Positions 16,001 through 29,285 of a stretch of DNA of 64,000 nucleotides are shown in pieces. The stretch lies in assembly GCA_963662405.2 (NCBI GenBank), contig CAXXKT010000001.1, positions 1,792,001 through 1,856,000 of the forward strand, in the 5' to 3' direction. Position numbers and translations under genes: made by a program. The first letter of the stretch is position 1, and each line of letters begins with the position of its first letter. Source of the stretch: Syntrophales bacterium (GTDB lineage: Bacteria; Desulfobacterota; Syntrophia; Syntrophales; UBA2210). Under the pieces are notes generated by a model. The model ran no database searches. It was given only the letters and a program-made list of their open reading frames with translations, and had not been told where the DNA came from.

Positions 16001-16720
16001 ATGGAACACCGTACCACTGAAAAACATTCTATTTATCTCTGTTCTCCTGCGAATGCCCTGGTCGAGGGTATCTACGAAGAAAAGATCCCCTTTACGGAGA
16101 TCAAAAAACACGGTGATTTCGGTATCGGCACCTTTGACCATCTGGATGGAGAGATGATTATGCTCGACGGGACCATATACCAGATAACAGGGGATGGTCA
16201 CGTCCATGAGGTCGATGAGAAGGCCCTGACCCCCTTCGCCTGTGTTATCTTCTACCGTCCTCTCACCCATGATGAGATCAGCCGTGAAATGGCGTATCCG
16301 GATTTTCTGGAGTGGCTCGAGACGTTGATGCCCTCCCCCAATCTCTTTTATGCGATTCGAATCGACGGTCTTTTCGCGCATGTGGCGGTCCGGTCGGTAC
16401 CGAAACAGGAAAATTACCGTCCCCTGGTCGAGGTCGCCGCCGACCAGCCCGTCTTCAGCTTCGACGATGTGGCGGGCTCTCTGGTGGGGTTTTTCACCCC
16501 TTCCTTTATGTCATCGGTGAATGTCCCGGGACTTCACCTCCATTTTCTTTCCGCCGACCGGCGCCGCGGGGGACATCTCCTGGAATGTGTGCTCCGCGAA
16601 GGGCGTGTCGGCATCCAGTTTATCCACACCTTGGAGCTTTCCCTCCCCATGAGCCTGGATTACCTCACCCTGGATTTCCAGCGTGATGCCGGGCAGGATC
16701 TGGCGAAGGCGGAGAAATAG
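16001..16720 (+). CDS. budA: Alpha-acetolactate decarboxylase
   Basis: 'HGDFGIGTFDHLDGEMIMLDG', 'PGLHLHFLS...GGHLL'. Confidence 0.9.
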   Translation: MEHRTTEKHSIYLCSPANALVEGIYEEKIPFTEIKKHGDFGIGTFDHLDGEMIMLDGTIYQITGDGHVHEVDEKALTPFACVIFYRPLTHDEISREMAYPDFLEWLETLMPSPNLFYAIRIDGLFAHVAVRSVPKQENYRPLVEVAADQPVFSFDDVAGSLVGFFTPSFMSSVNVPGLHLHFLSADRRRGGHLLECVLREGRVGIQFIHTLELSLPMSLDYLTLDFQRDAGQDLAKAEK

Positions 16721-16741
16721 CGTTTCCACGCGGGGGAACGG

Positions 16742-18355
16742 TTATCTCTTGTTGTTGGCGATATCCTGGGAGAGGAGCCGGGCGTAGCGGCCCAGCGTCC
16801 AGACGGACCGTTCAAAGAGGTTGGTCACGTAGAGGATCAGTGAACGCTCATCGGTGCCGAGGCTTGCTTCCGATGCAAGGTAACTGCCTCGAATCTTCTC
16901 CATCAGCTGACCTTTGTCCGCGGTGAGTGATGTAAGGATGTCCAGATCGGTCCGGTCGGTGCTCTCCGTCGCATCAATAGCGGTCAGTACGATGGCATCG
17001 AGACTCTCAACGATGTTCATGGCAAGGCCGGCGACCTTCCCCTCGACGGAGGTGTTCTTCAGTGTTTCGACCAGGTTGTAACAGTTATCCTCCAGGGCGG
17101 CGACCAGGTTATGGCGGTCCTGCACGTTGAGGAGCGACTCCGATGTCCTCAGCGAGAGATCCTGACGAAAGACGTCGGCGGTAAAGGCGTGGATCTCAGC
17201 GGAAACCTCGGCAAAAGCGGCATGATGGGCTTCGAGGGAGGGGGGCTGATCGGAGGCGATGTCCCCGCGCACCTTATCCAGGTAAGAGGGGATCCGACGC
17301 AACAGGCGGTGTACCTCTTGTTCGGCCAGCAGAACGGCGGTTTCGGGTTCACTGACGGCATGTTCATTGATGAATTGTATCTTGGATAACTCTTCTTCTT
17401 CCAGTGGCGGCCAGAAATGTTCGAGGAACCGATAGAGGGGGTCCAGGACAAAGGAGAGGACGACGGGTACCAGAAAATTGAAGATCAGCACCACCAGGGC
17501 TGCCTGCCGCGCGATGTCATCGGAGAGAAGCCCGATGAATGCCTTGACCAGTGGGATATCGGTATAGAGCTCGACATAAAAGAGCACCATGAAGATGGGG
17601 ATGCCGAATACGTTAAAGAGAACCTGCCCCATCACCGACTGTTTGGCGGAGCCCTTGAGGCTCGATGAGAGGACATAGGTGGTCACACTCGATCCCAGAT
17701 GAGCGCCGTAGATAATCATCAGGGTCTGATCGATGGTAAAAAGACCCGATTTGGTCATTGCCACGGCGATGATAATGATCCCCAAAGCTGCCTGTGAAAC
17801 GAAGGCCAGTACCGCTCCGATCAGAAAGGTGAGGAGGTAGGAACTCCTCGTGTTATAGAGAAGAGTCTTGATCCAGGGGGTCTCGGCGACAGGGGATGCC
17901 CCGGAACCCACCATGTGCAGGCCGAGAAAGAGGAGCGATATGCCGAAGAGCGTGCCCAGTACATGATGAAACTCCTTCGGTTTTTCAAAGGCATAACAGA
18001 TCCCCGAGATGCCCAGGAGGACCAGGACGATATTCTGGATGTCAAGGACGGCGAGAAGGACCAGCGTGGAACACCCCGCGTTTGCCCAGAAGACAATGGG
18101 GAGGGATTTGCGCACCGTCAGGAGTCCGCTGGAGATCAGGCTTGCCACAATAAAGGACGAAACCGATGTGCTCTGGGTGACGAAGCCGGAAAGGGCCCCC
18201 CAGAAGCCGGCAACGATGCCCCGATCGGTGAAACGGGCGATCGTCAGTTTGAGCCGCCTGCTGGTCATCAGCTTGAGGTTGCTGCTGACCATCCGGATGC
18301 CGACGAAGAAGAGCCCGAGACCTCCAAGGAGCAGGGCGATAGAGTTGTTAATCAT
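16742..18355 (-). CDS. Na/Pi cotransporter family protein
   Basis: 'GGLGLFFVGI', 'TQSTS', repeated N/H-x-G-S motifs, PhoU-like helical C-terminus. Confidence 0.8.
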   Translation of the reverse strand: MINNSIALLLGGLGLFFVGIRMVSSNLKLMTSRRLKLTIARFTDRGIVAGFWGALSGFVTQSTSVSSFIVASLISSGLLTVRKSLPIVFWANAGCSTLVLLAVLDIQNIVLVLLGISGICYAFEKPKEFHHVLGTLFGISLLFLGLHMVGSGASPVAETPWIKTLLYNTRSSYLLTFLIGAVLAFVSQAALGIIIIAVAMTKSGLFTIDQTLMIIYGAHLGSSVTTYVLSSSLKGSAKQSVMGQVLFNVFGIPIFMVLFYVELYTDIPLVKAFIGLLSDDIARQAALVVLIFNFLVPVVLSFVLDPLYRFLEHFWPPLEEEELSKIQFINEHAVSEPETAVLLAEQEVHRLLRRIPSYLDKVRGDIASDQPPSLEAHHAAFAEVSAEIHAFTADVFRQDLSLRTSESLLNVQDRHNLVAALEDNCYNLVETLKNTSVEGKVAGLAMNIVESLDAIVLTAIDATESTDRTDLDILTSLTADKGQLMEKIRGSYLASEASLGTDERSLILYVTNLFERSVWTLGRYARLLSQDIANNKR

Positions 18356-18580
18356 GGGATGTCACCGTGGCTGTTTCAAGTACAGAGCGGATCTTTAAGC
18401 AATTTGCCCCTCACCGATTCTTCTACTATATCTTTGTTTCAATTGCAAAACCGCTTTCCCCCTCCGACGGCCTCGCGCAAAGGCTCACACGAGGATCGCG
18501 AGCCCTCATCGTGAGATGGGCATTCATCGGACAGACACATATGGCGGCGCTGTTTGTCAGGCTGGTGACTGAGAAGGCAC

Positions 18581-19771
18581 CTATTCTGACCGGAGGGCAT
18601 CGATGGGGTTGAGCCGTGCCGCCTGCCGCGCAGGATAGAAACCGAAGAAGACTCCCACCACTCCCGAGACGATAACACCGAGGAGAATGGCATGATACGA
18701 CAGGAAGAAGTGCCACTGCGAAAGGGCCGAGATGCCATAGGACGCCCCGATTCCCAACCCGATACCGAGGATTCCCCCCACCATGCACAGCAGCATCGAT
18801 TCGACAATGAATTGGAGCTGTATGTCGTTTCTCTGGGCGCCGAGCGCCCGGCGGATGCCGATTTCTTTTCTCCTCTCCGTCACGGAAACGAGCATGACGT
18901 TCATGACGCCGACCCCCCCCACAATGAGTGAAATGCTCCCGATGGCTCCCAGGAGGATCGTAAAAAGACGCATCTGTTTCTGCATCTGATTGATGATCTC
19001 TTCCGCGCTTTTGACGCGGATTGCCATGTTCCGTACCATCCTCTTGAAATACTGTTTTGCCTGCATTGCCGCAGTGAGATGGTTGCCTTCCGGCCGGATC
19101 CTGCCGATGATGTTTCGTATGGATCCTCTCTGATCGAGACGCTGGCTGGTGGTCAGCGGGACCATGGCGCATTCACTGATCTCGTAGGGGCGCATTCCTC
19201 CCGCGGGAACACCATCTACCGCGCCGATGATCGTGAACAGCTTGTCCTCAAAAAAGATCCGACCGCCTATCATATCCTTCATTCCCAGGGACCGCAGCTT
19301 TCGCGCCATGGTGTCACCAACAACGCAGAAATAAGACCGCTCATCGAGATCGGAAATAAATCGTCCCTCTTTGAGGCGGAGTTTATTCAGATCCATGAAA
19401 CTCTCCGTGACGCCCATTACCGGGCCGTCCCACTTTTTCCCTTGGTATTTATACCTTCCATAGGTTGAGGTATAGGGAGCGACCGCTCCAATCTCCGGAC
19501 AATAGCGGGGAATCGCCAGTGCATCGGTCAAGGCGATCTCATTACTCTTGGTCGAACTACTCCCACCTCTGTGATCCTTGCTGATGGTCAGGATATCCGT
19601 CCCCATCTCTCTGAATTGACGAAGTGCCTCATTCTGAACGATTGTTCCGATCGATACCATGGCGATGACCGAACCGATACCGACGAATATGCCGATGAGG
19701 GCCAGCAACGTGCGCTGTTTGGACGCCAAGAGGCTGACCGTGGCCTCCTTTATATTTGCTCTGATGATCAT
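18581..19771 (-). CDS. MacB/FtsX-type ABC permease
   Basis: 'RTLLALIGIFVGIGSVI', 'VGGVGVMNVMLVSVTERRKEIGIRRALGA', 'PARQAARLNPIDALR'. Confidence 0.92.
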   Translation of the reverse strand: MIIRANIKEATVSLLASKQRTLLALIGIFVGIGSVIAMVSIGTIVQNEALRQFREMGTDILTISKDHRGGSSSTKSNEIALTDALAIPRYCPEIGAVAPYTSTYGRYKYQGKKWDGPVMGVTESFMDLNKLRLKEGRFISDLDERSYFCVVGDTMARKLRSLGMKDMIGGRIFFEDKLFTIIGAVDGVPAGGMRPYEISECAMVPLTTSQRLDQRGSIRNIIGRIRPEGNHLTAAMQAKQYFKRMVRNMAIRVKSAEEIINQMQKQMRLFTILLGAIGSISLIVGGVGVMNVMLVSVTERRKEIGIRRALGAQRNDIQLQFIVESMLLCMVGGILGIGLGIGASYGISALSQWHFFLSYHAILLGVIVSGVVGVFFGFYPARQAARLNPIDALRSE

Positions 19772-19885
19772 ACCGGTTCGTACACCACCTTCCGTGTCTT
19801 TTTCAGGATCTCCCTGTTTCCACAATAACAACAGTATGCCGCTTCGTCTTGCGTGCCGATTCGTATGGTATCACCAGGGTCCCTC

Positions 19886-20560
19886 TTACAACACCGTGTC
19901 CTCCAGCAGCCCGTCGTTCATCCTCACGGTCCGCTTGCATTGTCTGGCAATGCCCGGATCGTGGGTAATAATGACGACAGTGACATCCTCTTCATCATTG
20001 AGGGTGAAGAAAAGATCCATGATTTCTCGCCCGACCTTGGTATCCAGGGCACCGGTCGGTTCATCGGCGAAGATAATGGAAGGATTTCCGACGAAGGCCC
20101 GCGCTATGGCCACTCGTTGTTGCTCCCCTCCCGAGAGTTCCGTCGGCCGGTGGTGCTGCCGGTGTGCCATTCCCACTTTTTCGAGCATCCGTTCCGAACA
20201 CTGCCGCTGCTCCTTCTCCCCTGCTCCTCGATAGATAAGAGGAAGCGCGACATTGTCGAGGGCGGTCAGGCGCGAAAGGAGATAAAAGTGCTGGAACACG
20301 AATCCTATTTTTTGGTTTCGTGTGGCCGACTGTTCTCTGTCACTGAATTGAGACACGTCTCTCCCTTCGAGGAGATAGGATCCGGAACTGGCAACGTCCA
20401 GGAGTCCCATGATATTCATCAATGTCGATTTCCCGCATCCAGACGTACCCACGATTGAGAGCAGTTCGCCCTCCTCAACGGTCAGATCGATCCCCTTCAG
20501 GATCTCCATTTCCAGGGGACCGATGTGATAGGATTTGCGAAGATCATGTATCTGAATCAT
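19886..20560 (-). CDS. ABC ATPase (MacB/LolD-like)
   Basis: GTSGCGKS, LSGGEQQRVAIAR, ADEPTGALD. Confidence 0.93.
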   Translation of the reverse strand: MIQIHDLRKSYHIGPLEMEILKGIDLTVEEGELLSIVGTSGCGKSTLMNIMGLLDVASSGSYLLEGRDVSQFSDREQSATRNQKIGFVFQHFYLLSRLTALDNVALPLIYRGAGEKEQRQCSERMLEKVGMAHRQHHRPTELSGGEQQRVAIARAFVGNPSIIFADEPTGALDTKVGREIMDLFFTLNDEEDVTVVIITHDPGIARQCKRTVRMNDGLLEDTVL

Positions 20561-20570
20561 AGGCGTTTTC

Positions 20571-22364
20571 TCAGGGTATGGCCGTCGTTTGTGGTTGATC
20601 CGTATCGAATGTGTCCGGGGAAGGGAGAGAGATCACCGAGGACCCCCGGGGCACTGCGACTCTATCGCCTGCTACAATCCCTCGCGTGATTTCTACCGAA
20701 TCGAGGGTGGTAATGCCGGTTTCGACTTCCGTTTCTCTTCGCTCCCCGCTTGAGGGGTCCCAAACAAAGGCAAAATGCCTTCCTTCAGAGGTCCTTATCG
20801 CCCCGATGGGGACCAGGACGGCTTGGGGATTGTTGTAGACCAGAACCTGGAGATTGGCCGACATGCCCAATCTGATGATCTCTTTTTGCTCCGGCGTCAG
20901 GCTTTTCACTGTTACATGGAGGCTGAACAGGGGGATTCCGAGCCCGGTCATGCTTTTCTGGGCCTGAGCGGATATGTGTGTGATTTCGCCGTGCAGGGGG
21001 GTGGAAAGGAAGGCGTCACCGGTGACGATGACCGTCTGACCGATCTTGACCCTTCCGATATCAACTTCGTCAACGGTTGCCCTGACAGTCAGACCGCTGA
21101 GATCGCCGATTGACAGAAGGAGGTCTCCTTGTGCCACGGATATCCCCCGTTCGATTGTCTTTGCCTTATCCTCACCTCTCTGGGTCGGCTTGATAACGAT
21201 ACCGCTCACCGGAGCCTTGACAACAGACTGCGCGACCTGCTGTCTCATCCTCTCCAACCTGCTTCTGGCATTTTCAAATTCCAGACGCAGAACCTTCACA
21301 TTTTCTTCGCTCCCCTTTTTCAGGACGGTCTGGAGTTCCTCTTTCTGGTTGATATATTGCTCCCGGGCCGATTCGTACTCATTGCGGGAGACGATCCCTT
21401 TCTCATAGAGAAGTTTGTTTTCCTCCATCTTGTTTGCGGCACTGGCAAGGGAGCGTCTGGCTTTGAGCACTTCGGTACCCCCGGACCATCCTTCAAGTAT
21501 TTCCAACTCCTTCCGGGCTTTGATATATGCGGACGTAGCCTCCCGGAGCTTGATCTCTATCTCGTTTGTGTCCATCAAAAGGAGCGGAGTTCCCCTCTTG
21601 ACGAACGCTCCGTACGTGAAATATCGCTCTTTTATATGGCCTTGAAAGGGGCTGATTACATTGATTTCACCAAGGGGTTCAATGGCTCCCGCCAGTGATA
21701 CGCTGGAGGAAAGGGGGCGAGGGGTCACCGTATAGGTGTCGAATTGTCCTGGTGCCGTCGTCCCGGTTGTCGCTCCGAGGGGGAGCGATGTTTTTTTCAG
21801 AAACCCGTCGCTCCATGAGTAGAATCCGATCCCGACGAAGAGCAGCACGACGCAGATGGTCACGACGACCCTGATAACCTGCACCTTCTTGAGCGCCGTG
21901 TTCAGGGTTTTATTCGATTCCTCAAGATCTCGGTAGGCGTCACGAAGCTGCCGGTTGAGTTCCTGCTCTGCGATTTGTAATTCTTTGATTTTCGTAACGT
22001 CATTGAAAACGACGATGACCCCCGTGTGCCCTCCGGCATCTTCCTCCGCCGATCTAAGGTATGACGACGTCACGGAGAGGGTGAGAGAGACATTGTCCCT
22101 GCGCCGAAATGAAACGGTTGCCTGATGGCCTGCAACGGACTCATAGATTGCATCGAGAATGGTCTGATTGAATTCGTCATTGCCCTCCATTTCCATCATA
22201 AAAACTTCGGCAAATGACCTGCCGATGACCTCATCGCCGGAAAAACCGAGGATTATGGATGCCGCTGGATTAAACATGATAATCCGTCCGCTGAGATTCA
22301 GGGTCATGACCCCGTCACTCATATTATCCAAGACATTCTTGTAAAATACCTCTGCCTTATCCAT
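20571..22364 (-). CDS. PAS domain fused to a MacA-like periplasmic adaptor (membrane fusion protein)
   Basis: N-terminal PAS ('VLDNMSDGVMTLNLSGRIIMFNPAA...VFNDVT'), coiled coil, one TM, then MFP motifs 'KAPVSGIV', 'VDEVDIGRVKIGQ', 'VETGI'. Confidence 0.85.
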   Translation of the reverse strand: MDKAEVFYKNVLDNMSDGVMTLNLSGRIIMFNPAASIILGFSGDEVIGRSFAEVFMMEMEGNDEFNQTILDAIYESVAGHQATVSFRRRDNVSLTLSVTSSYLRSAEEDAGGHTGVIVVFNDVTKIKELQIAEQELNRQLRDAYRDLEESNKTLNTALKKVQVIRVVVTICVVLLFVGIGFYSWSDGFLKKTSLPLGATTGTTAPGQFDTYTVTPRPLSSSVSLAGAIEPLGEINVISPFQGHIKERYFTYGAFVKRGTPLLLMDTNEIEIKLREATSAYIKARKELEILEGWSGGTEVLKARRSLASAANKMEENKLLYEKGIVSRNEYESAREQYINQKEELQTVLKKGSEENVKVLRLEFENARSRLERMRQQVAQSVVKAPVSGIVIKPTQRGEDKAKTIERGISVAQGDLLLSIGDLSGLTVRATVDEVDIGRVKIGQTVIVTGDAFLSTPLHGEITHISAQAQKSMTGLGIPLFSLHVTVKSLTPEQKEIIRLGMSANLQVLVYNNPQAVLVPIGAIRTSEGRHFAFVWDPSSGERRETEVETGITTLDSVEITRGIVAGDRVAVPRGSSVISLPSPDTFDTDQPQTTAIP

Positions 22365-22433
22365 AAGAAAAATCCTTTCGGAAAGACCCTGATTGATGTT
22401 GTTCAGACGGCCGTTTCTGTCCCGCACGAAGGA

Positions 22434-23993
22434 TCATCGATACTCAAACAATTCGTGTTCCAAGGCTTGATAGTCGTCCCGTAATTGTATCTTCCATGTG
22501 TCGAGCGTTGTTCCCAGAAGTTGATCGAGGGTCGTCAGCGATGTCAGATAGGATATGGTCTGATTCACTTCCGCCTCCTGCCTTTCCACCAGGGTATTCT
22601 GAAAGCTCACCACCTGGAAGAGAGTGGATCTGCCCGCGTTGAGCTTGGTTTTTTCAACCTCCAGTTTTTGCCTGGCGAGTTCGAGACTCTTGCGTGCTCG
22701 CTTGAGGAGCGCCAGTTGGGTGTGCACATTGCGGACGGCATTCCGTACGTCGGTCTCGAGATCGCTTCTGGCCTCCTCCAGGTTTAACCGCGCGACCTTG
22801 AGGGCCTTCTTCGCGAGCAGGAGGTCCTGTCTCTTGACGAGCCGGTCATTTCCATAGATTTCAAAGGGAATCGTGAGGTTGAGACCGATATACCACTCGC
22901 GCTCCTTGTCATCATCGGCAGCGTCTTTTACGAGGGCATCCTCGTAGTCCTCCCCGTATCGTGCGGAAAGACCGAGATCCCAGAGTCGGCTATTTTCTTC
23001 CTCCATCAGTTCAAGCTCACTGCGCGTCACGTTGTTCACCTTCTGTGCGTAGGCGCCGTTGTTTTTCAAGGCGATTGTCAGGCAGTCGTCATAGACGGGT
23101 TTCACTTCCCGGAGAAAGACCTCATCGGCCGGGGTAATGGAGATGTTCCTCTCGATATCGAGGACGTCGATCAGGGTCAGAAGGTTTGTCTCCACGATGT
23201 TGACGGCCTCTTCGTAGCTGAATTCCTGGTCGGCGACCTGGGCCTCCGATTGGATCAGTTCATTGGCCGCCATTCGTCCTGTTTCAACGAGGATTTTATT
23301 CGTTTCAAGCTGATGTTTTGCCTCTTCCAGCGCCGCCTCCCTGATCTTGAGATTCCGGGATGACTTGTAGAAATTGTTGTATCCGGATATTACCGAGGCA
23401 ATGATGCCGCCGATATCGTCCCTCAGGTTCAGGAGGTTTTCTTGTTCCGTGAGTCGTGCCTTGATGAGCGATGCCCGATTATATGTGATTCCTCCCCCTT
23501 TCAAGAGTGGTTGCGTCAACGTTACCGACCACCCTGAAGGGAGTGTTGATTCGGAATCGGAGGCTCCGTCCGTCTTTGTCCGTATGGTGGTGTATTGCTG
23601 CTCCCATCCGAAGGCGATCTGAGCGCCAGTGGGAAGTTTCTGTGTGGCACTGGCGGTTACACCGGTCTCCAGAGATTCGGTGCGCGTTTTATCCTTCTCT
23701 CCCACCGCTGTCGCGTAGGCGTCCGTATAGGTCCCATCTGCGATGATATCAACCCTGATATTGGGAAGGAATTCTGCTTCTGCAATCTGAAGGTCGTATT
23801 TCTGGGTGACCCGATTGAGATAGGTGATCGCGATACTTCTGTTGGAGCGAAGTGCCAGCGAGACGGCGTCAGACAGGGTCATCTCGATCGTCTTACCGGA
23901 TTCCTTTTTTCTCTGCTCCTGAGGCGTTTCGCCCGCCCAGACAGTGAGTGCCATCAGGAGTATAACCACAACAAGATAAAGTCGACTTTTCAT
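22434..23993 (-). CDS. TolC-family outer membrane protein
   Basis: Signal peptide, 'MTLSDAVSLAL', 'TLTQPLLKGGG', long heptad helices. Confidence 0.85.
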   Translation of the reverse strand: MKSRLYLVVVILLMALTVWAGETPQEQRKKESGKTIEMTLSDAVSLALRSNRSIAITYLNRVTQKYDLQIAEAEFLPNIRVDIIADGTYTDAYATAVGEKDKTRTESLETGVTASATQKLPTGAQIAFGWEQQYTTIRTKTDGASDSESTLPSGWSVTLTQPLLKGGGITYNRASLIKARLTEQENLLNLRDDIGGIIASVISGYNNFYKSSRNLKIREAALEEAKHQLETNKILVETGRMAANELIQSEAQVADQEFSYEEAVNIVETNLLTLIDVLDIERNISITPADEVFLREVKPVYDDCLTIALKNNGAYAQKVNNVTRSELELMEEENSRLWDLGLSARYGEDYEDALVKDAADDDKEREWYIGLNLTIPFEIYGNDRLVKRQDLLLAKKALKVARLNLEEARSDLETDVRNAVRNVHTQLALLKRARKSLELARQKLEVEKTKLNAGRSTLFQVVSFQNTLVERQEAEVNQTISYLTSLTTLDQLLGTTLDTWKIQLRDDYQALEHELFEYR

Positions 23994-24602
23994 AGCGCAA
24001 TACTGCCTCAAGGCCTGAGAGATGATCGTTTACCGTTGCTGAAGCAGCACTCTAGCCCAATCCATGAAATAAGTCAAAAAGTATCGGTACATGCGCCGCA
24101 CAGTTCCGTCTGACGGGTACGATCCTGAAACTGACGGTGCGCAATGACGCCTCCCTCCTGTTGGAATTGCGAATCAGGGACAGTATGGGACATATCGTGC
24201 GGAGATGGAAGACGGCGCACGGACGATCGTCGTGAAGGCCGGCAGCGGCCGTACGTGATCTTGCCCATTCCTGCTGGTGGAACCCAGTACCCGTCGCTCA
24301 GGATTTCTCAGTACGAAAATAGTGAGTGTACACAACGGCTTTGACCTCAAACGCGGCTTCGTTATACCCTGTCTTATCAGAGCCGAAGGACAAATGATCG
24401 CATGCCAACCGCCGGCATGAGAACCCTGGTCGCCACGAGCATCTGTTTCTTCATGCAGAATATCTCCTGTGATTCTCCGTCAGGTTTCCAAGAAACTCCA
24501 AGATAAAAAGAGTGGATACACGAGGACATCTCTGAGATTCCCCTTGCATTTTTCCACATATGTTATTACATCGGAGCTGAGATAGAAATACAGGAGGGTG
24601 TT

Positions 24603-24935
24603 ATGGAGATATCCGCGGAAAAGGGTGAAAAGGGCCTGATGGTTCACGTGGCCGGTCGAATGGATGCTGTTTCGTCTCCGGAATTCGAGAAGGCGATGGA
24701 CGCCTGGCTTGAAAAGGGGGAGACGATTCTTGTCGTCGATTGCAGCAACCTTGAGTATATCAGCAGTTCGGGGCTCAGGAGCGTCCTGACCATCGCCAAG
24801 AAGTTGAAGGCGCGGAACGGAAAGATCCTCCTCGTCTCCCTGACGAGTGTTGTCAAAGAGGTCTTTGACATCTCCGGATTCAGCGCCATCATTCCGGTCT
24901 ACGATTCGCTGCAGGTTGCCGTTGCCGATCTATAG
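24603..24935 (+). CDS. STAS-domain anti-sigma factor antagonist
   Basis: 'GRMDA', 'DCSNLEYISSSGLR' phospho-Ser motif; GGAGG RBS. Confidence 0.92.
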   Translation: MEISAEKGEKGLMVHVAGRMDAVSSPEFEKAMDAWLEKGETILVVDCSNLEYISSSGLRSVLTIAKKLKARNGKILLVSLTSVVKEVFDISGFSAIIPVYDSLQVAVADL

Positions 24936-24995
24936 GCGGACAGGTACGTATCGAAACAGGGGGAGGCCCCTGCTCTCCTGTAGGAGGAAGCGTCG

Positions 24996-25403
24996 ATGGA
25001 GACATTGCAACTGCCGGCAATTCTTGAGAACCTGGATCCCTTTATCGGATTCGTGCATTCAGGTGCGGCATCTTTTGGCCTGAGCGACAAGAGGATCCTG
25101 GAGGTTGAGTTGGCGTTGGAGGAGGCCCTGGTCAATGTCTTTCAGAATGCCTATCCGGGGGGGGACGGATGGGTGGAGGTGCGTTTCGGGTCCCGGGATA
25201 CAAACCAGTTTGTCATAGAGATCATCGACGAGGGGATTCCCTTCGACCCTCTCGCACGTCCCGATCCGAATGTCGACCGGGGGATCGAAGAGCGGGAGGT
25301 AGGAGGGTTGGGGATCTTCCTGGTCAAAGATATGATCGACCACGTGGAATATCGCCGGGAGGGGGCGATGAATATCCTGACCTTCCAGGTGTTCAGAGAG
25401 TAG
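24996..25403 (+). CDS. RsbW/SpoIIAB-like anti-sigma Ser kinase
   Basis: 'LALEEALVN', 'DEGIPFDP', 'GGLGIFLV'. Confidence 0.92.
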   Translation: METLQLPAILENLDPFIGFVHSGAASFGLSDKRILEVELALEEALVNVFQNAYPGGDGWVEVRFGSRDTNQFVIEIIDEGIPFDPLARPDPNVDRGIEEREVGGLGIFLVKDMIDHVEYRREGAMNILTFQVFRE

Positions 25404-25410
25404 AAGGACT

Positions 25411-26394
25411 ATGGTCGAAAAGAAAAAGTTGTTTATTGTTGTCATCTTTTTTGTTTGTTTCTCTTTCCCCGCGATGGCTGTTTCCGGGACGCCGGCAAAG
25501 ATGTCGTTCATCCCGCAGTGGGTCCCCCAGGCGCAGTTTGCCGGATATTACATGGCGTACGAGAAGGGGATCTATGAGCGGTACGGGATTGATTTGACCA
25601 TCATCACAGGTGGTCCCGATCGGCCGCCGTCGGACCTCCTTGAAGAGGGGACCGCTGATTTCGCTACCCTCTGGCTGACAACGGGGATTCAGCTGCGTGC
25701 GAAGGGCGTCCCGGTGGTCAATATCGCCCAGATGCTGAAGCGCTCGGCGCTGATGCTGGTCGCAAAAAAATCCAGCGGCATCGAGCGTCCCGAAGATATG
25801 AACGGCAAGAAGGTCGGTCTGTGGGGACCGGTCTTTCAGATCCAGCCCCGGGCCTTCTTTAAAAAATACAAACTTGATGTCCGGGAGGTTCCCCAGTCGT
25901 ATTCCGTCAACCTCTTTCTCCGTGACGGTGTCGACGTCGCGTCGGCCATGTGGTACAACGAATATCACACGATCCTGAACTGTGGCCTCAATCCCGATGA
26001 ACTGACCACCTTCTTTTTCCACGAACACGGTCTCAATTTTCCTGAAGACGGCATCTATGTCCTCGAAGAGACGTATCGAAAAAATCCGGAATTGTGCAGT
26101 TCTTTTGTACAGGCATCGCTGGAAGGATGGCAGTATGCATTCGAAAATCCGGAGGAAACGATTGCCGTTGTCATGAGTAACCTGGAACGTGAGCATATCC
26201 CGGCCACGGCGGTACACCAGAGATGGATGCTGAACCGGATGAAGGATCTCATGTTGCCGGACGGAGGTACCGATGGATCGCCAGGAAGCCTGCGTCCTGA
26301 GGATTATCACCGTGTCGCCATAGGGTTGAAGACAAACGAGTTGATAGAGACGATCCCCAGCTTTACCTCCTTCTATCGGGGGAGTGCCAGATGA
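25411..26394 (+). CDS. NMT1/THI5-like periplasmic substrate-binding protein
   Basis: Signal peptide; 'QWVPQAQFAGYYMAYEKGIY..YG'. Confidence 0.88.
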   Translation: MVEKKKLFIVVIFFVCFSFPAMAVSGTPAKMSFIPQWVPQAQFAGYYMAYEKGIYERYGIDLTIITGGPDRPPSDLLEEGTADFATLWLTTGIQLRAKGVPVVNIAQMLKRSALMLVAKKSSGIERPEDMNGKKVGLWGPVFQIQPRAFFKKYKLDVREVPQSYSVNLFLRDGVDVASAMWYNEYHTILNCGLNPDELTTFFFHEHGLNFPEDGIYVLEETYRKNPELCSSFVQASLEGWQYAFENPEETIAVVMSNLEREHIPATAVHQRWMLNRMKDLMLPDGGTDGSPGSLRPEDYHRVAIGLKTNELIETIPSFTSFYRGSAR

Positions 26395-28319
26395 TACGGA
26401 AAAAAGGAATTGCCTTTAAACTGATCGTTTCTATTCTTGCCGGTGTCTCTGTTATATTCTTGGCTATCTTCGGATATAACTATCTCTATTCACGGAATCT
26501 GATCGTCAAATACGTGGAAGAGAACGCCAAGAATCTCGCGGGGAGGACGATCGGCCAGATAGATAAGGTGCTCGGTTCCGTCGCGAAGGTTCCTCAGAAT
26601 GTTGCCCATGTCCTCGAGGATACCTCCTGCACTGCTGATGAGCTGGAAACCTTTCTCCGGTCGGTCGTGCGTGAAAATGATGAGATTTACGGTGCAACCC
26701 TTGCCTTCGAGCCCTATATGTTTGATTCCGGAAAAGAACGATACGCACCCTATTTTTATAAGGATGCCGATGGAGATATTCGGTTTTCCAATCTTGCAGG
26801 AGAGTCCTACAACTATCTCAACGCGGACTGGTATCAGATCCCGCGGGAACTTCAGCATCCTGTATGGACTGAGCCCTATTTCGACGAAGGGGGAGGGAAT
26901 ATCGTCATGTCGACCTATTCCGTTCCCTTCTATCGAGTCAGGGATGGGAAAAGAATGTTCGCCGGAATCGTCACCGCGGATATATCTCTCTCATGGCTCC
27001 AGCAGATCGTTTCGTCGATCCGAATCGCCCAGACAGGATATGGCTTCGTTATCACGAAAAACGGAACCTTTGTCGTTCATCCCGACAAAAAGATAGTCAT
27101 GAACGAGACTATCTTCAGCCTCGCGGAGGGGCGGGGCGACCCCGCACTTCGCGAAGTGGGCCGAAAGATGATTCACGGCGGGTCCGGCTTTGTTGCTTTC
27201 CGGAGCACCGTCACGGAAAAGATGTGCTGGATGGTCTATGCTCCCTCGAAGGCGAGCGGGTGGTCGGTTGGTGTCCTTTTCCCGCAGGATGAACTGATGT
27301 CGGATGTGACCCGAATGAACCGGACGGTTCTGATTATCGGGTTCGTCGGGTTGCTCTTTTTGTGTTTCGTCATTGTTCTCATAGCTCAGACCATCACCCG
27401 ACCCCTCCGACTCCTGGCCGGAGCGGCCCGCACCATTGCGACGGGTGATCTCGATGGTCGCATCCCCCGTGTGAAGGCACGGGATGAGGTCGGTGAGCTT
27501 GCCGAATCGCTTGATTATATGAAGGTTTCGCTGAAGAAATATATCGAAGACCTGACCGAAGCGACGGCGGCGCGGGAACGCATAGAGGGTGAACTTAAGG
27601 TCGCGCATGATATCCAGATGGGTATTCTCCCCAAGGTCTATCCGCCCTTTCCCGACAGACCGGAATTCGAACTCTATGCCATGCTCCAGCCGGCGAAGGA
27701 GGTGGGAGGAGACCTGTATGACTTCTTCTTTCTGGACGATGATCACCTCTGTTTCCTGGTGGGGGATGTCTCGGGGAAGGGCGTGCCGGCGTCCCTTTTC
27801 ATGGCCATCACCAAGACGCTGATCAAGACGAAGGCTACAAAGGGCATCTCCCCGGAGGCGATCCTGGGGAGCGTCAATCAGGATCTTTCCGTGGACAACC
27901 CGTCTCTCATGTTTGTCACCCTTTTCCTGGGGATCCTGAACATACGGACGGGAAAACTGATCTATTGCAACGGCGGGCATAACCCGCCCTACGTCATCCG
28001 CTCGGACGGTACCCTTGAAACGATTGAGACGACCAACGGTATGGCCCTCGGTGTCATGGAGGACTTTCTCTATCAGTCGAAGACACTGACACTTGGTATG
28101 CATGACACGCTTATGCTTTATACCGACGGAGTGACAGAGGCGATGAATGAGCGCCACGAGCTTTTTTCGGAACAAAGGCTGGAAGATATCCTGTTGACCT
28201 CGGTGGACACTTTACCTCAAGAACTGATCCGAAAAGTCCTGGAAATGATCCTGGAATATTGCCGTGATGTTGAACAGACGGATGATATCACCATGCTGGC
28301 GATTCGTTTCAACGGATAG
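26391..28319 (+). CDS. Cache-HAMP-SpoIIE (RsbU-like) membrane phosphatase
   Basis: Two TMs, Cache motif 'DWYQIP...WTEPYFD', HAMP 'DEVGELA', PP2C motifs 'VGGDLYD','GDVSGKG','YTDGVTE','DDIT'. Confidence 0.93.
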   Translation: MIRKKGIAFKLIVSILAGVSVIFLAIFGYNYLYSRNLIVKYVEENAKNLAGRTIGQIDKVLGSVAKVPQNVAHVLEDTSCTADELETFLRSVVRENDEIYGATLAFEPYMFDSGKERYAPYFYKDADGDIRFSNLAGESYNYLNADWYQIPRELQHPVWTEPYFDEGGGNIVMSTYSVPFYRVRDGKRMFAGIVTADISLSWLQQIVSSIRIAQTGYGFVITKNGTFVVHPDKKIVMNETIFSLAEGRGDPALREVGRKMIHGGSGFVAFRSTVTEKMCWMVYAPSKASGWSVGVLFPQDELMSDVTRMNRTVLIIGFVGLLFLCFVIVLIAQTITRPLRLLAGAARTIATGDLDGRIPRVKARDEVGELAESLDYMKVSLKKYIEDLTEATAARERIEGELKVAHDIQMGILPKVYPPFPDRPEFELYAMLQPAKEVGGDLYDFFFLDDDHLCFLVGDVSGKGVPASLFMAITKTLIKTKATKGISPEAILGSVNQDLSVDNPSLMFVTLFLGILNIRTGKLIYCNGGHNPPYVIRSDGTLETIETTNGMALGVMEDFLYQSKTLTLGMHDTLMLYTDGVTEAMNERHELFSEQRLEDILLTSVDTLPQELIRKVLEMILEYCRDVEQTDDITMLAIRFNG

Positions 28320-28400: not shown

Positions 28401-29285
28401 ATGCAGGCGGTACGCCGGAGACTGAAGATATTCCTGGCCCTCTTCGTTGTGGTTACGGCGGCGGGGACGGTCGGGTTCATGGTCCTTGAGGATCTCTCGT
28501 TTCCTGAGGCCCTCTACTATAACATCGTCACCATGTCCACCGTCGGATACGGGGATATCCACCCGACGAGCAACGCCAGCCGCCTCTTCGCCGTCCTCCT
28601 CATCATCATGGGGGCGGGGACCTTTATCGGGGTGATCGCGAACGCGACCGAGATGGTCCTTCTCAAGCGGGAAGAGCAGCACCGGCTCCGCAAGATCAAT
28701 ATGGTGCGGGGGATCTTCTTCAATGAGGTGGGGTATGACCTCCTCAGTCTCCTTGCCTCCTACGACCGTGATATAGAAAAGACGAGAGACCGATTCATCG
28801 TCGAGACGGACTGGTCGGATCGGCACTTTGCGTCCGTTCAGAAGGTGCTCAAGCGACATGCCTTTCATGTGGATGCCGATCGTGTCGATGTCATAGGCCT
28901 CTTTGATTTCCTCGAGGACAAACAGAGATTCCTCGCCCGGCTGCTGGAGAATCCGGTCCTGATAGAGCACGAGGAGTTCACGGAGGTCCTCCTGGCCGTT
29001 TTTCACCTGACGGATGAACTGGCCAGTCGTGACCAGCTCACGGTCCTCCCCCGGTCGGATATAAAGCACCTCGTGGGGGATATCAACCGCGTCTACGGGC
29101 TGCTGATCGGGCAGTGGTTTGTGTACCTGCAGCACGTGAAGAGCCAGTATCCGTATCTGTATTCCCTGGCCGTCCGGAAGAACCCCTTCGACGAGGATGC
29201 GACCCCGGTGGTCATTGATACCGATTCTGAAGAGGAGACGGTCGTCCTCGCGGACGAAGATAGAGAAGAAAAGGAAAAACAATGA
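28401..29285 (+). CDS. 2-TM potassium channel with non-RCK C-terminal domain
   Basis: Selectivity filter TVGYGD. Confidence 0.85.
   Translation: MQAVRRRLKIFLALFVVVTAAGTVGFMVLEDLSFPEALYYNIVTMSTVGYGDIHPTSNASRLFAVLLIIMGAGTFIGVIANATEMVLLKREEQHRLRKINMVRGIFFNEVGYDLLSLLASYDRDIEKTRDRFIVETDWSDRHFASVQKVLKRHAFHVDADRVDVIGLFDFLEDKQRFLARLLENPVLIEHEEFTEVLLAVFHLTDELASRDQLTVLPRSDIKHLVGDINRVYGLLIGQWFVYLQHVKSQYPYLYSLAVRKNPFDEDATPVVIDTDSEEETVVLADEDREEKEKQ

Follow-up and report, generated by a model that had tools for sequence, protein, structure and literature searches.

This study provided comparative genomic evidence linking a sigma-less partner switch, far more often than expected by chance and across separate lineages, to an exporter of the MacAB-TolC type whose periplasmic adaptor carries a PAS domain. 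The pair was found in the genome of a Syntrophales bacterium (G000; 3.8 Mb, 100% complete), in a 64,000-nt stretch of contig CAXXKT010000001.1 (assembly GCA_963662405.2, positions 1,792,001 to 1,856,000), the whole of which is called the window here; the block under study occupies its positions 16742..28319. In this block, the pump genes (TolC channel, adaptor, ATPase and permease) stand back to back with a switch operon for a STAS protein, an RsbW-like kinase, an NMT1/THI5-like binding protein (NMT1) and a SpoIIE-type PP2C phosphatase. Because the PAS-bearing pump and the same PAS domain on other enzymes both track switch genes, the switch likely controls secretion via PAS and not via a sigma factor. 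That the STAS protein docks directly on the adaptor PAS, and that the switch thereby gates the pump, is a proposal to which we give nearly an even chance of being correct. More tentatively, the PAS subfamily may be a plug-in receptor for phosphorylation-controlled STAS proteins, which would place its fused outputs (pump adaptor, class III cyclase, GGDEF, HD, SpoIIE and 2-oxoglutarate dehydrogenase E1, SucA) under the sigma-less switch and would here open MacAB-TolC-type secretion of hypervariable small Cys-rich proteins.

The clustering of adaptors at 85% identity gave 80 clusters, 59 of which had at least 12 kb of flank. A STAS or RsbW gene lay within 10 kb in 14 of these 59, and a PP2C gene only in one more, against an estimated expectation of about 1% per locus; the RsbW-like match of locus L042, inside a 557-aa protein, was left out of the count, and the STAS gene of L055, just beyond 10 kb, was not counted. 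The full STAS-RsbW-NMT1-PP2C set was near the pump in five cases (the window, L030, L131, L134 and L195), in five layouts: divergent, convergent, tandem, single-operon and split. Among cultured hosts, Trichlorobacter thiogenes (L025) has a linked locus. On the IQ-TREE tree the linked pumps were scattered, since 17 positives (labelled from their neighbourhoods and including two short-flank loci) needed 14 changes among 61 labelled rows compared with 15.1 after shuffling, and the five full-set pumps were rejected as a clade (p-AU 4.6e-23, on a quick tree that had been seen before the test).

The association was also seen at the level of whole genomes. In an even sample of the class, RsbW was located within 10 kb of the pump in 4 of 28 pump genomes, representing two lineages, compared with 0.2 expected by chance as estimated from match counts and rounded genome sizes. 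RsbW was present anywhere in 25 of the 28 pump-bearing genomes and in 91 of 222 other genomes of the class, a difference that is weakened by the larger size of pump-bearing genomes and the non-independence of kin. When 34 pump-bearing genomes were chosen, the profile built from these STAS proteins matched 33, among them every one of the 11 from the gamma- and betaproteobacteria, as against 11 of 150 sampled Gammaproteobacteria; the only new PAS match in those 150 genomes was itself a pump (G641), within one of the 11 STAS-positive genomes.

All parts of a partner switch were found in the window operon, namely a PP2C phosphatase, a GHKL serine kinase and a phospho-Ser STAS protein, with the N and G boxes of the kinase, the serine loop of STAS and all four Asp motifs of PP2C preserved. 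The host genome encodes one strong RsbW and one canonical STAS protein, in both cases the window copy, besides two further proteins with a STAS domain and two genes of the SpoIIE family. The initial annotation had reported no sigma factor in the block, and the claim extends genome-wide for SigB and SigF, since the PF04542 search matched only four sigma-70-family genes: RpoD (named by length and sequence, unscanned), RpoH, FliA and one extracytoplasmic function (ECF) factor. No factor of the SigB/SigF/SigG class, and thus no canonical SigB/SigF switch, was found in the host genome by this search.

It is very unlikely, in our judgment, that RsbW rather than STAS is the effector, binding PAS as it would a sigma factor until STAS pulls it off. 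Such an arrangement would follow canonical partner-switch logic (PMC8256260) and would suit the presence of RsbW alongside the pump in 25 of the 28 class genomes, but STAS abuts pump genes without RsbW in L024, L034, L119, L143 and L144 and in the order seen in L131, and only rarely is RsbW seen where no STAS was detected (L005).

The PAS subfamily as a candidate receptor

The PAS domain of the adaptor spans about 120-130 aa and is followed by a 40-aa coiled coil. Members of the same subfamily were found at the N-terminus of class III cyclase, GGDEF, HD, SpoIIE and SucA proteins and also as stand-alone proteins. The host genome has one member, scoring 166 bits compared with 57 for its next PAS, with a profile that includes the window's own sequence. 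A PDB sequence search with the PAS profile returned weak generic PAS matches only, and the ESM Atlas gave generic PAS clusters for PAS and, beyond PAS, only leads under 0.9.

The cyclases carrying this PAS domain reproduced the linkage seen for the pump. STAS, RsbW or PP2C was located within 10 kb in 9 of 13 PAS-cyclase clusters with enough flank, and a switch gene was found in 1 of 22 control loci (Fisher p 9e-5), the control comprising every other cyclase locus in a sample of 300 clostridial genomes and thus confined to Clostridia, which tells against a comparison whose test set covers several phyla. The only new PAS match in the clostridial sample was a PAS-HD protein (G440) with PP2C, STAS and RsbW all within 7 kb.

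Within the domain, helix 63-75 is highly conserved (D63 in 88/90, Q67 in 83/90, L70 in 85/90, D71 in 80/90 and Y74 in 75/90). Part of this helix was included in the pattern used to retrieve the loci, which counts against these figures; in a pattern-free alignment the same helix columns were conserved at 90% or more. The five residues form a stripe at helix angles of 80-180 degrees; the hydrophobic face, near 337 degrees, points elsewhere. This stripe is a candidate docking surface for the switch.

PAS domains usually bind ligands. We weighed, as an unlikely alternative, that PAS is a small-molecule sensor and that pump and switch share a signal, or that the switch acts indirectly, through a second messenger made by PAS-cyclases or by GGDEF/HD proteins or through transcription by the sigma-54 activator whose N-terminus is HAMP-like, without direct contact. 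The existence of PAS-SpoIIE fusions suggests that PAS could be an input sensor and is a point in favor of this alternative, but the conserved polar residues are predicted to face away from the hydrophobic side of the helix, which would suit a docking surface over a ligand pocket.

We infer the ligand relay, the STAS-PAS contact, the gating and the identity of the cargo, and the proposed mechanism of direct docking would run as follows. A periplasmic ligand bound by NMT1 would be relayed to the dCache-HAMP-SpoIIE phosphatase, which together with the RsbW-like kinase would set the phosphorylation of STAS Ser55. Unphosphorylated STAS would then bind PAS, probably at the D63/Q67/L70/D71/Y74 stripe, and the unbroken helix from PAS to the membrane would alter the stimulation of the MacB ATPase by the adaptor, so that small Sec-exported Cys-rich proteins could leave the periplasm through TolC. 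As a portable receptor, PAS would also give this switch control over the cyclase, GGDEF, HD, SpoIIE and SucA proteins. The last steps have precedents: according to one review, deletion of the cytoplasmic part of MacA or DevB blocked ATPase stimulation or export (PMC5985334), and another report describes unphosphorylated SiaC as directly binding and activating SiaD (PMC8457831).

For most sigma-less STAS switches no target is known (PMC8256260), and a soluble PAS domain of 130 residues with a mutable surface stripe offers a concrete candidate for such a target, on at least six kinds of output proteins in several phyla. If the mechanism is true, a tripartite pump is gated from the cytoplasm by protein phosphorylation via its adaptor. 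The findings also point to many small secreted proteins that lack annotation, in Desulfobacterota that are anaerobic and in Proteobacteria from the sea.

Two further fusion types were observed near switch genes. PAS-SucA fusions occur at L066:3169-5948, L067:660-3401, L070:6493-9438 and in L152, and a STAS gene is close by in L066, L070 and L152, while L070 also has a fusion of REC, SpoIIE and RsbW; switch control of the tricarboxylic acid cycle is possible. At L071:11394-13439, a 5'-nucleotidase/metallophosphoesterase open reading frame (ORF) with a C-terminal STAS domain (a fusion or a read-through) lies beside SpoIIE-RsbW and a PAS-cyclase.

The exporter and its candidate cargo

The pump genes encode an ATPase with intact Walker A, signature, Walker B and H-loop motifs, a permease with four hydrophobic segments (transmembrane segments (TMs) at 43-61, 289-307, 337-355 and 381-399) and its large periplasmic domain between TM1 and TM2, an adaptor with one TM and a TolC channel. 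With such a permease, and with an intact ATPase, a MacA-like adaptor and TolC encoded together, the window pump has the make-up of a type VII ATP-binding cassette (ABC), or MacB-like, tripartite exporter. The window pump is not MacAB proper, since its ATPase and permease genes are split and its scores fall short of the equivalog cut-offs (207-228 versus 966 bits for MacB, 59 versus 342 bits for MacA). Among 8000 candidates scored, 105 adaptor homologues were found at E<=1e-20, with PAS and adaptor domains in nearly all, and of 63 adaptor loci from GTDB, 60 included a TolC gene, so that the four-gene pump appears to be a stable unit. In the AlphaFold2 model of the adaptor (pLDDT 87, pTM 0.53), PAS occupies residues 1-122 and is followed by an unbroken helix (124-184) into the membrane, a flexible linker and the periplasmic adaptor part, whose best fold match is MacA of MacAB-TolC. 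No publication on a PAS-adaptor pump was found in our literature searches, which leave out most subscription papers, and the term "PAS" occurs 0 times in a MacB review (PMC5985334).

The pump may export a periplasmic substrate via TolC, and its cargo was sought among the neighbors of homologous pumps. The heuristic took ORFs of 90-200 aa with a ribosome-binding site, a Sec-like signal and two or more cysteines in the mature protein, and its hits include some false ORFs. Within 2.5 kb of pumps, 71 such ORFs were found, at 33 of 52 loci with enough flank, or 2.27 per 10 kb, compared with 0.58 further out, 0.12 in the host genome and 0.10 at loci centered on the switch or on Na/Pi-cotransporter-like (Na/Pi) genes; small Sec+Cys ORFs are thus 19-fold over background beside related pumps. 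There was no Pfam match in 47 of 49 proteins scanned. Small Cys-rich Sec proteins are likely the pump cargo.

Tandem arrays of 3-7 diverged, small and secreted Cys-rich paralogues without a Pfam match were observed beside the pump at L005:3904-6640, L047:3784-8162, L134:6425-7825 and L142:5616-7769.

In the host genome, the best cargo-like gene (C3:139211-139600, six cysteines) abuts a second Na/Pi gene and showed no sequence match to the other cargo-like proteins, and a profile of 16 cargo-like proteins gave nothing significant in this genome. In the pair at L225:7514-9601 (G000:C3:137513-139600), this Na/Pi-like paralogue (73% identical) is convergent with the cargo-like gene, whose product is a secreted orphan protein of 129 aa. 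Two secreted Lcl_C-like proteins of the host (G000:C1:1520098-1521222 and C1:2707988-2709094) are similar to Lcl_C proteins encoded on either side of pumps in Geobacteraceae, and they are possible unlinked cargo.

An indirect link between switch and pump, as in the alternative raised above, draws on regulatory signs in these neighborhoods. A -24/-12-like site was found upstream of 13 of the 71 cargo-like genes versus 4.5% in the background, several of them within the tandem arrays, and a protein with a HAMP-like domain, mostly a sigma-54 activator, is near 10 of the 59 pump clusters. Further, STAS distances tracked PAS no better than the periplasmic adaptor part or TolC (partial Mantel test, partial r 0.15, p 0.14; 19 loci), which likewise suits a link without contact. 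Against the indirect route, no HAMP-like-domain protein was found in the host genome, and no sigma-54 site was found in its divergent intergenic region.

The HAMP-like domain is an observation in its own right. It comprises about 75 aa, has no Pfam match and precedes, on the N-terminal side, domains of four kinds, namely sigma-54 activator, HD, cyclase and histidine kinase (alignment A4: L018:8790-10019, L005:2605-3837, L025:6828-7754, L002:7253-8329 and L014:4699-6030). As RsbW was present in 23 of 23 class genomes carrying it, this domain may be a second switch-linked input module.

Beyond the lack of a PAS-specific co-evolution signal with STAS, several results weigh against direct control of the pump by the switch. 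No switch gene was found within 10 kb in 44 of the 59 clusters, including the nearest pump kin, and in G172 RsbW is on another contig than the pump. The 91 RsbW-positive genomes without the pump indicate that the switch has other outputs. No PAS-STAS fusion was found among the 47 single-PAS representatives scanned out of the best 150, the other 103 being mostly multi-PAS proteins or proteins covered before. As for the cargo, no cargo-like gene flanks the window pump, and the host genome gave no match for DsbA, DsbB or Thioredoxin_4.

Layout, history and sensory input of the locus

The nine ORFs of the block, all intact, agree in order and strand with the gene run that the initial annotation had described, as verified by the ORF list and by Pfam and NCBIfam scans (Table 1); its estimate of about 600 bp for the divergent intergenic region is close to the measured length.

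Table 1. Features of the studied block in window coordinates.
Feature	Position	Strand	Basis
Divergent Na/Pi-cotransporter-like protein	16742..18355	-	PF02690 Na_Pi_cotrans; NF037997 above cut-off, TIGR00704 below
MacB-type permease, 4 TM, large periplasmic domain	18581..19831 (likely start 19771)	-	PF12704 MacB_PCD + PF02687 FtsX
Separate MacB/LolD-type ABC ATPase	19886..20560	-	PF00005
Adaptor P0001 (597 aa): PAS, coiled coil, TM, MacA-like periplasmic part	20571..22364 (database start; ORF 20571-22427)	-	Pfam (PAS + HlyD)
PAS subfamily domain of adaptor	21975..22364	-	Alignments, conservation, helix angles, other fusions
TolC-family outer-membrane channel (OEP)	22434..24011 (ATG at 23993)	-	PF02321; TIGR01844 below cut-off
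Divergent intergenic region, 591 bp	24012..24602	.	Between TolC and STAS genes
STAS protein, invariant Ser55 (YISSSGLR)	24603..24935	+	PF01740; TIGR00377 above cut-off; alignment
RsbW/SpoIIAB-like serine kinase	24996..25403	+	PF13581, HATPase_c_2; N-box, G1, G2 motifs
NMT1/THI5-like periplasmic binding protein	25411..26394	+	PF09084; overlaps phosphatase start
Membrane sensor phosphatase TM-dCache-TM-HAMP-SpoIIE	26391..28319	+	Pfam; metal-binding Asp motifs, two TMs

The nine genes had been proposed to form one sense-and-secrete module, and this part of the proposal was not sustained, since the pump looks recently inserted. A contig of the same family (G146, L228) matches window positions 16133-18376 at 80% and 24535-25649 at 70%, and a distance of about 175 bp separates these blocks on that contig, compared with 6.2 kb in the window. 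The same Na/Pi gene facing the STAS-RsbW-NMT1-SpoIIE operon was found without the pump in G121, G137 and G170, and only the last ~70 bp of the intergenic region match the relative without the pump. The nearest homologues of the pump (G172, G045 and L114) have no switch gene within 10 kb. As the matching blocks are close together in the pump-less relative and no switch lies near the closest pumps, insertion of the pump is the simplest reading, and it was probably inserted recently into the divergent gap of an older block made of the Na/Pi gene and the switch operon. A promoter and terminator scan of the intergenic region found no sigma-70 promoter sites above chance (9 promoter-like sites versus 7.5 by chance).

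The Na/Pi gene had been counted in the pump run. Among 127 adaptor loci it is near the adaptor in the window only, and in relatives it faces the switch operon. Outside the family, a 30%-identical Na/Pi gene adjoins the switch in G034, and, counting G146, G121, G137 and G170 as well, the Na/Pi gene of this type is beside RsbW in five of the 10 other genomes of the class in which it occurs, the remaining five showing no link on their contigs. The idea that the gene is a mere bystander was rejected, as it proved to be linked to the switch operon in relatives. Na/Pi cotransporters of the NptA/NaPi-II type have two QSSS repeats. The window protein has QSTS/QAAL in place of the QSSS/QSSS found in a distant paralogue of the same genome, and so does not qualify as such a cotransporter.

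This history lends some weight to the absence of any functional link, that is, a mobile pump cassette beside a switch acting on the Na/Pi-like transporter, on FlgM/FliA or on the K+ channel-like gene. The recent insertion, the Na/Pi gene as a conserved neighbor of the switch in the family, the presence of FliA and the STAS-FlgM link known in Pseudomonas (PMC8256260) all fit this explanation. It is nevertheless improbable, because it leaves unexplained about 12 separate pump-switch adjacencies, the STAS co-occurrence in the gamma- and betaproteobacteria and the contrast between PAS-cyclases and controls. The initial annotation had foreseen a non-sigma output such as the exporter; a tie of the sigma-less switch to this kind of exporter is supported by the repeated linkage in separate lineages. 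The Na/Pi gene goes with the pump nowhere else. The neighborhood survey that it had called for found the two halves linked in 15 of 59 clusters and unlinked in the remainder.

Two genes flanking the block recur beside the switch operon elsewhere. An acetolactate decarboxylase gene (16001-16720, +) also adjoins it in G146 and G172, and a two-TM K+ channel-like gene (28401-29285, +) is also located by it in G146, as a fragment match.

On the input side, all 14 intact loci, picked via RsbW, PAS or Na/Pi, have the NMT1 gene immediately upstream of that for PP2C, with two further rows being a split fragment and a contig end. A binding protein without a cognate importer had been noted, and indeed no permease or ATPase gene adjoins NMT1, whereas the thiamine operon of the host, at C1:473-476 kb, has an importer with its own binding protein. 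The window protein has the motif QW..AQF compared with DW..xxH in ThiY-like PDB hits and in the thiamine-operon copy. A role as the binding protein of a ThiXYZ or NitT-TauT importer was rejected on the absence of an adjacent importer and on this N-terminal difference. NMT1 pairs with the phosphatase rather than with an importer, and by analogy it is likely a co-receptor of the phosphatase. Periplasmic co-receptors of this kind have precedents in LuxP and TorT. Our literature search found no publication on NMT1-SpoIIE pairing. In one metagenome-assembled genome, about 170 bp of additional sequence breaks NMT1 into two pieces (L227:382-1645, G146:C51).

Comparison with known systems

Like MacAB-TolC of E. 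coli, AatPABC/CexPABC and DevBCA, all type VII ABC systems, the window pump has a 4-TM permease with a periplasmic domain, a TM-anchored adaptor and TolC. These relatives export small Sec-exported proteins such as STII and dispersin, according to the review (PMC5985334). The window pump differs in its separate ATPase and permease genes, in scores far below the MacA and MacB equivalog cut-offs, in the 120-aa PAS and 40-aa coiled coil added to the adaptor, and in cargo candidates that belong to orphan Cys-rich families.

Concerning the switch, the RsbU/RsbP-RsbV-RsbW-SigB and SpoIIE-SpoIIAA-SpoIIAB-SigF systems of Bacillus have three protein families in common with the window, with motifs and phospho-Ser intact, but the host has no SigB/SigF/SigG-class factor and the window proteins fall below the RsbW and SpoIIAA equivalog cut-offs. 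SiaABCD of Pseudomonas aeruginosa, as described in PMC8457831, resembles the window in its membrane PP2C phosphatase, kinase and small phosphorylated partner without a sigma factor; there SiaC binds the helical stalk of a diguanylate cyclase via Thr68, whereas the window partner is a canonical Ser STAS protein. The window phosphatase reaches 75 bits where the cut-off for SiaA is 700, the operon contains no GGDEF gene, NMT1 is added, and the proposed output would be PAS on a pump adaptor.

Non-sigma outputs are also known for BtrU-BtrV-BtrW of Bordetella, which controls secretion, and for SypE-SypA, HmpUVW and HenR-All4160. The texts consulted (PMC8256260; bioRxiv 10.64898/2026.04.08.717354) give type III secretion or polysaccharide as the outputs of these systems; for most of them no target is known, or STAS is fused to the enzyme, and neither a PAS receptor nor a MacAB-type pump appears in any of them there. 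The window locus is thus a sigma-less switch like SiaABCD or BtrUVW joined to a MacAB-TolC-type exporter, and it is a member of neither named system.

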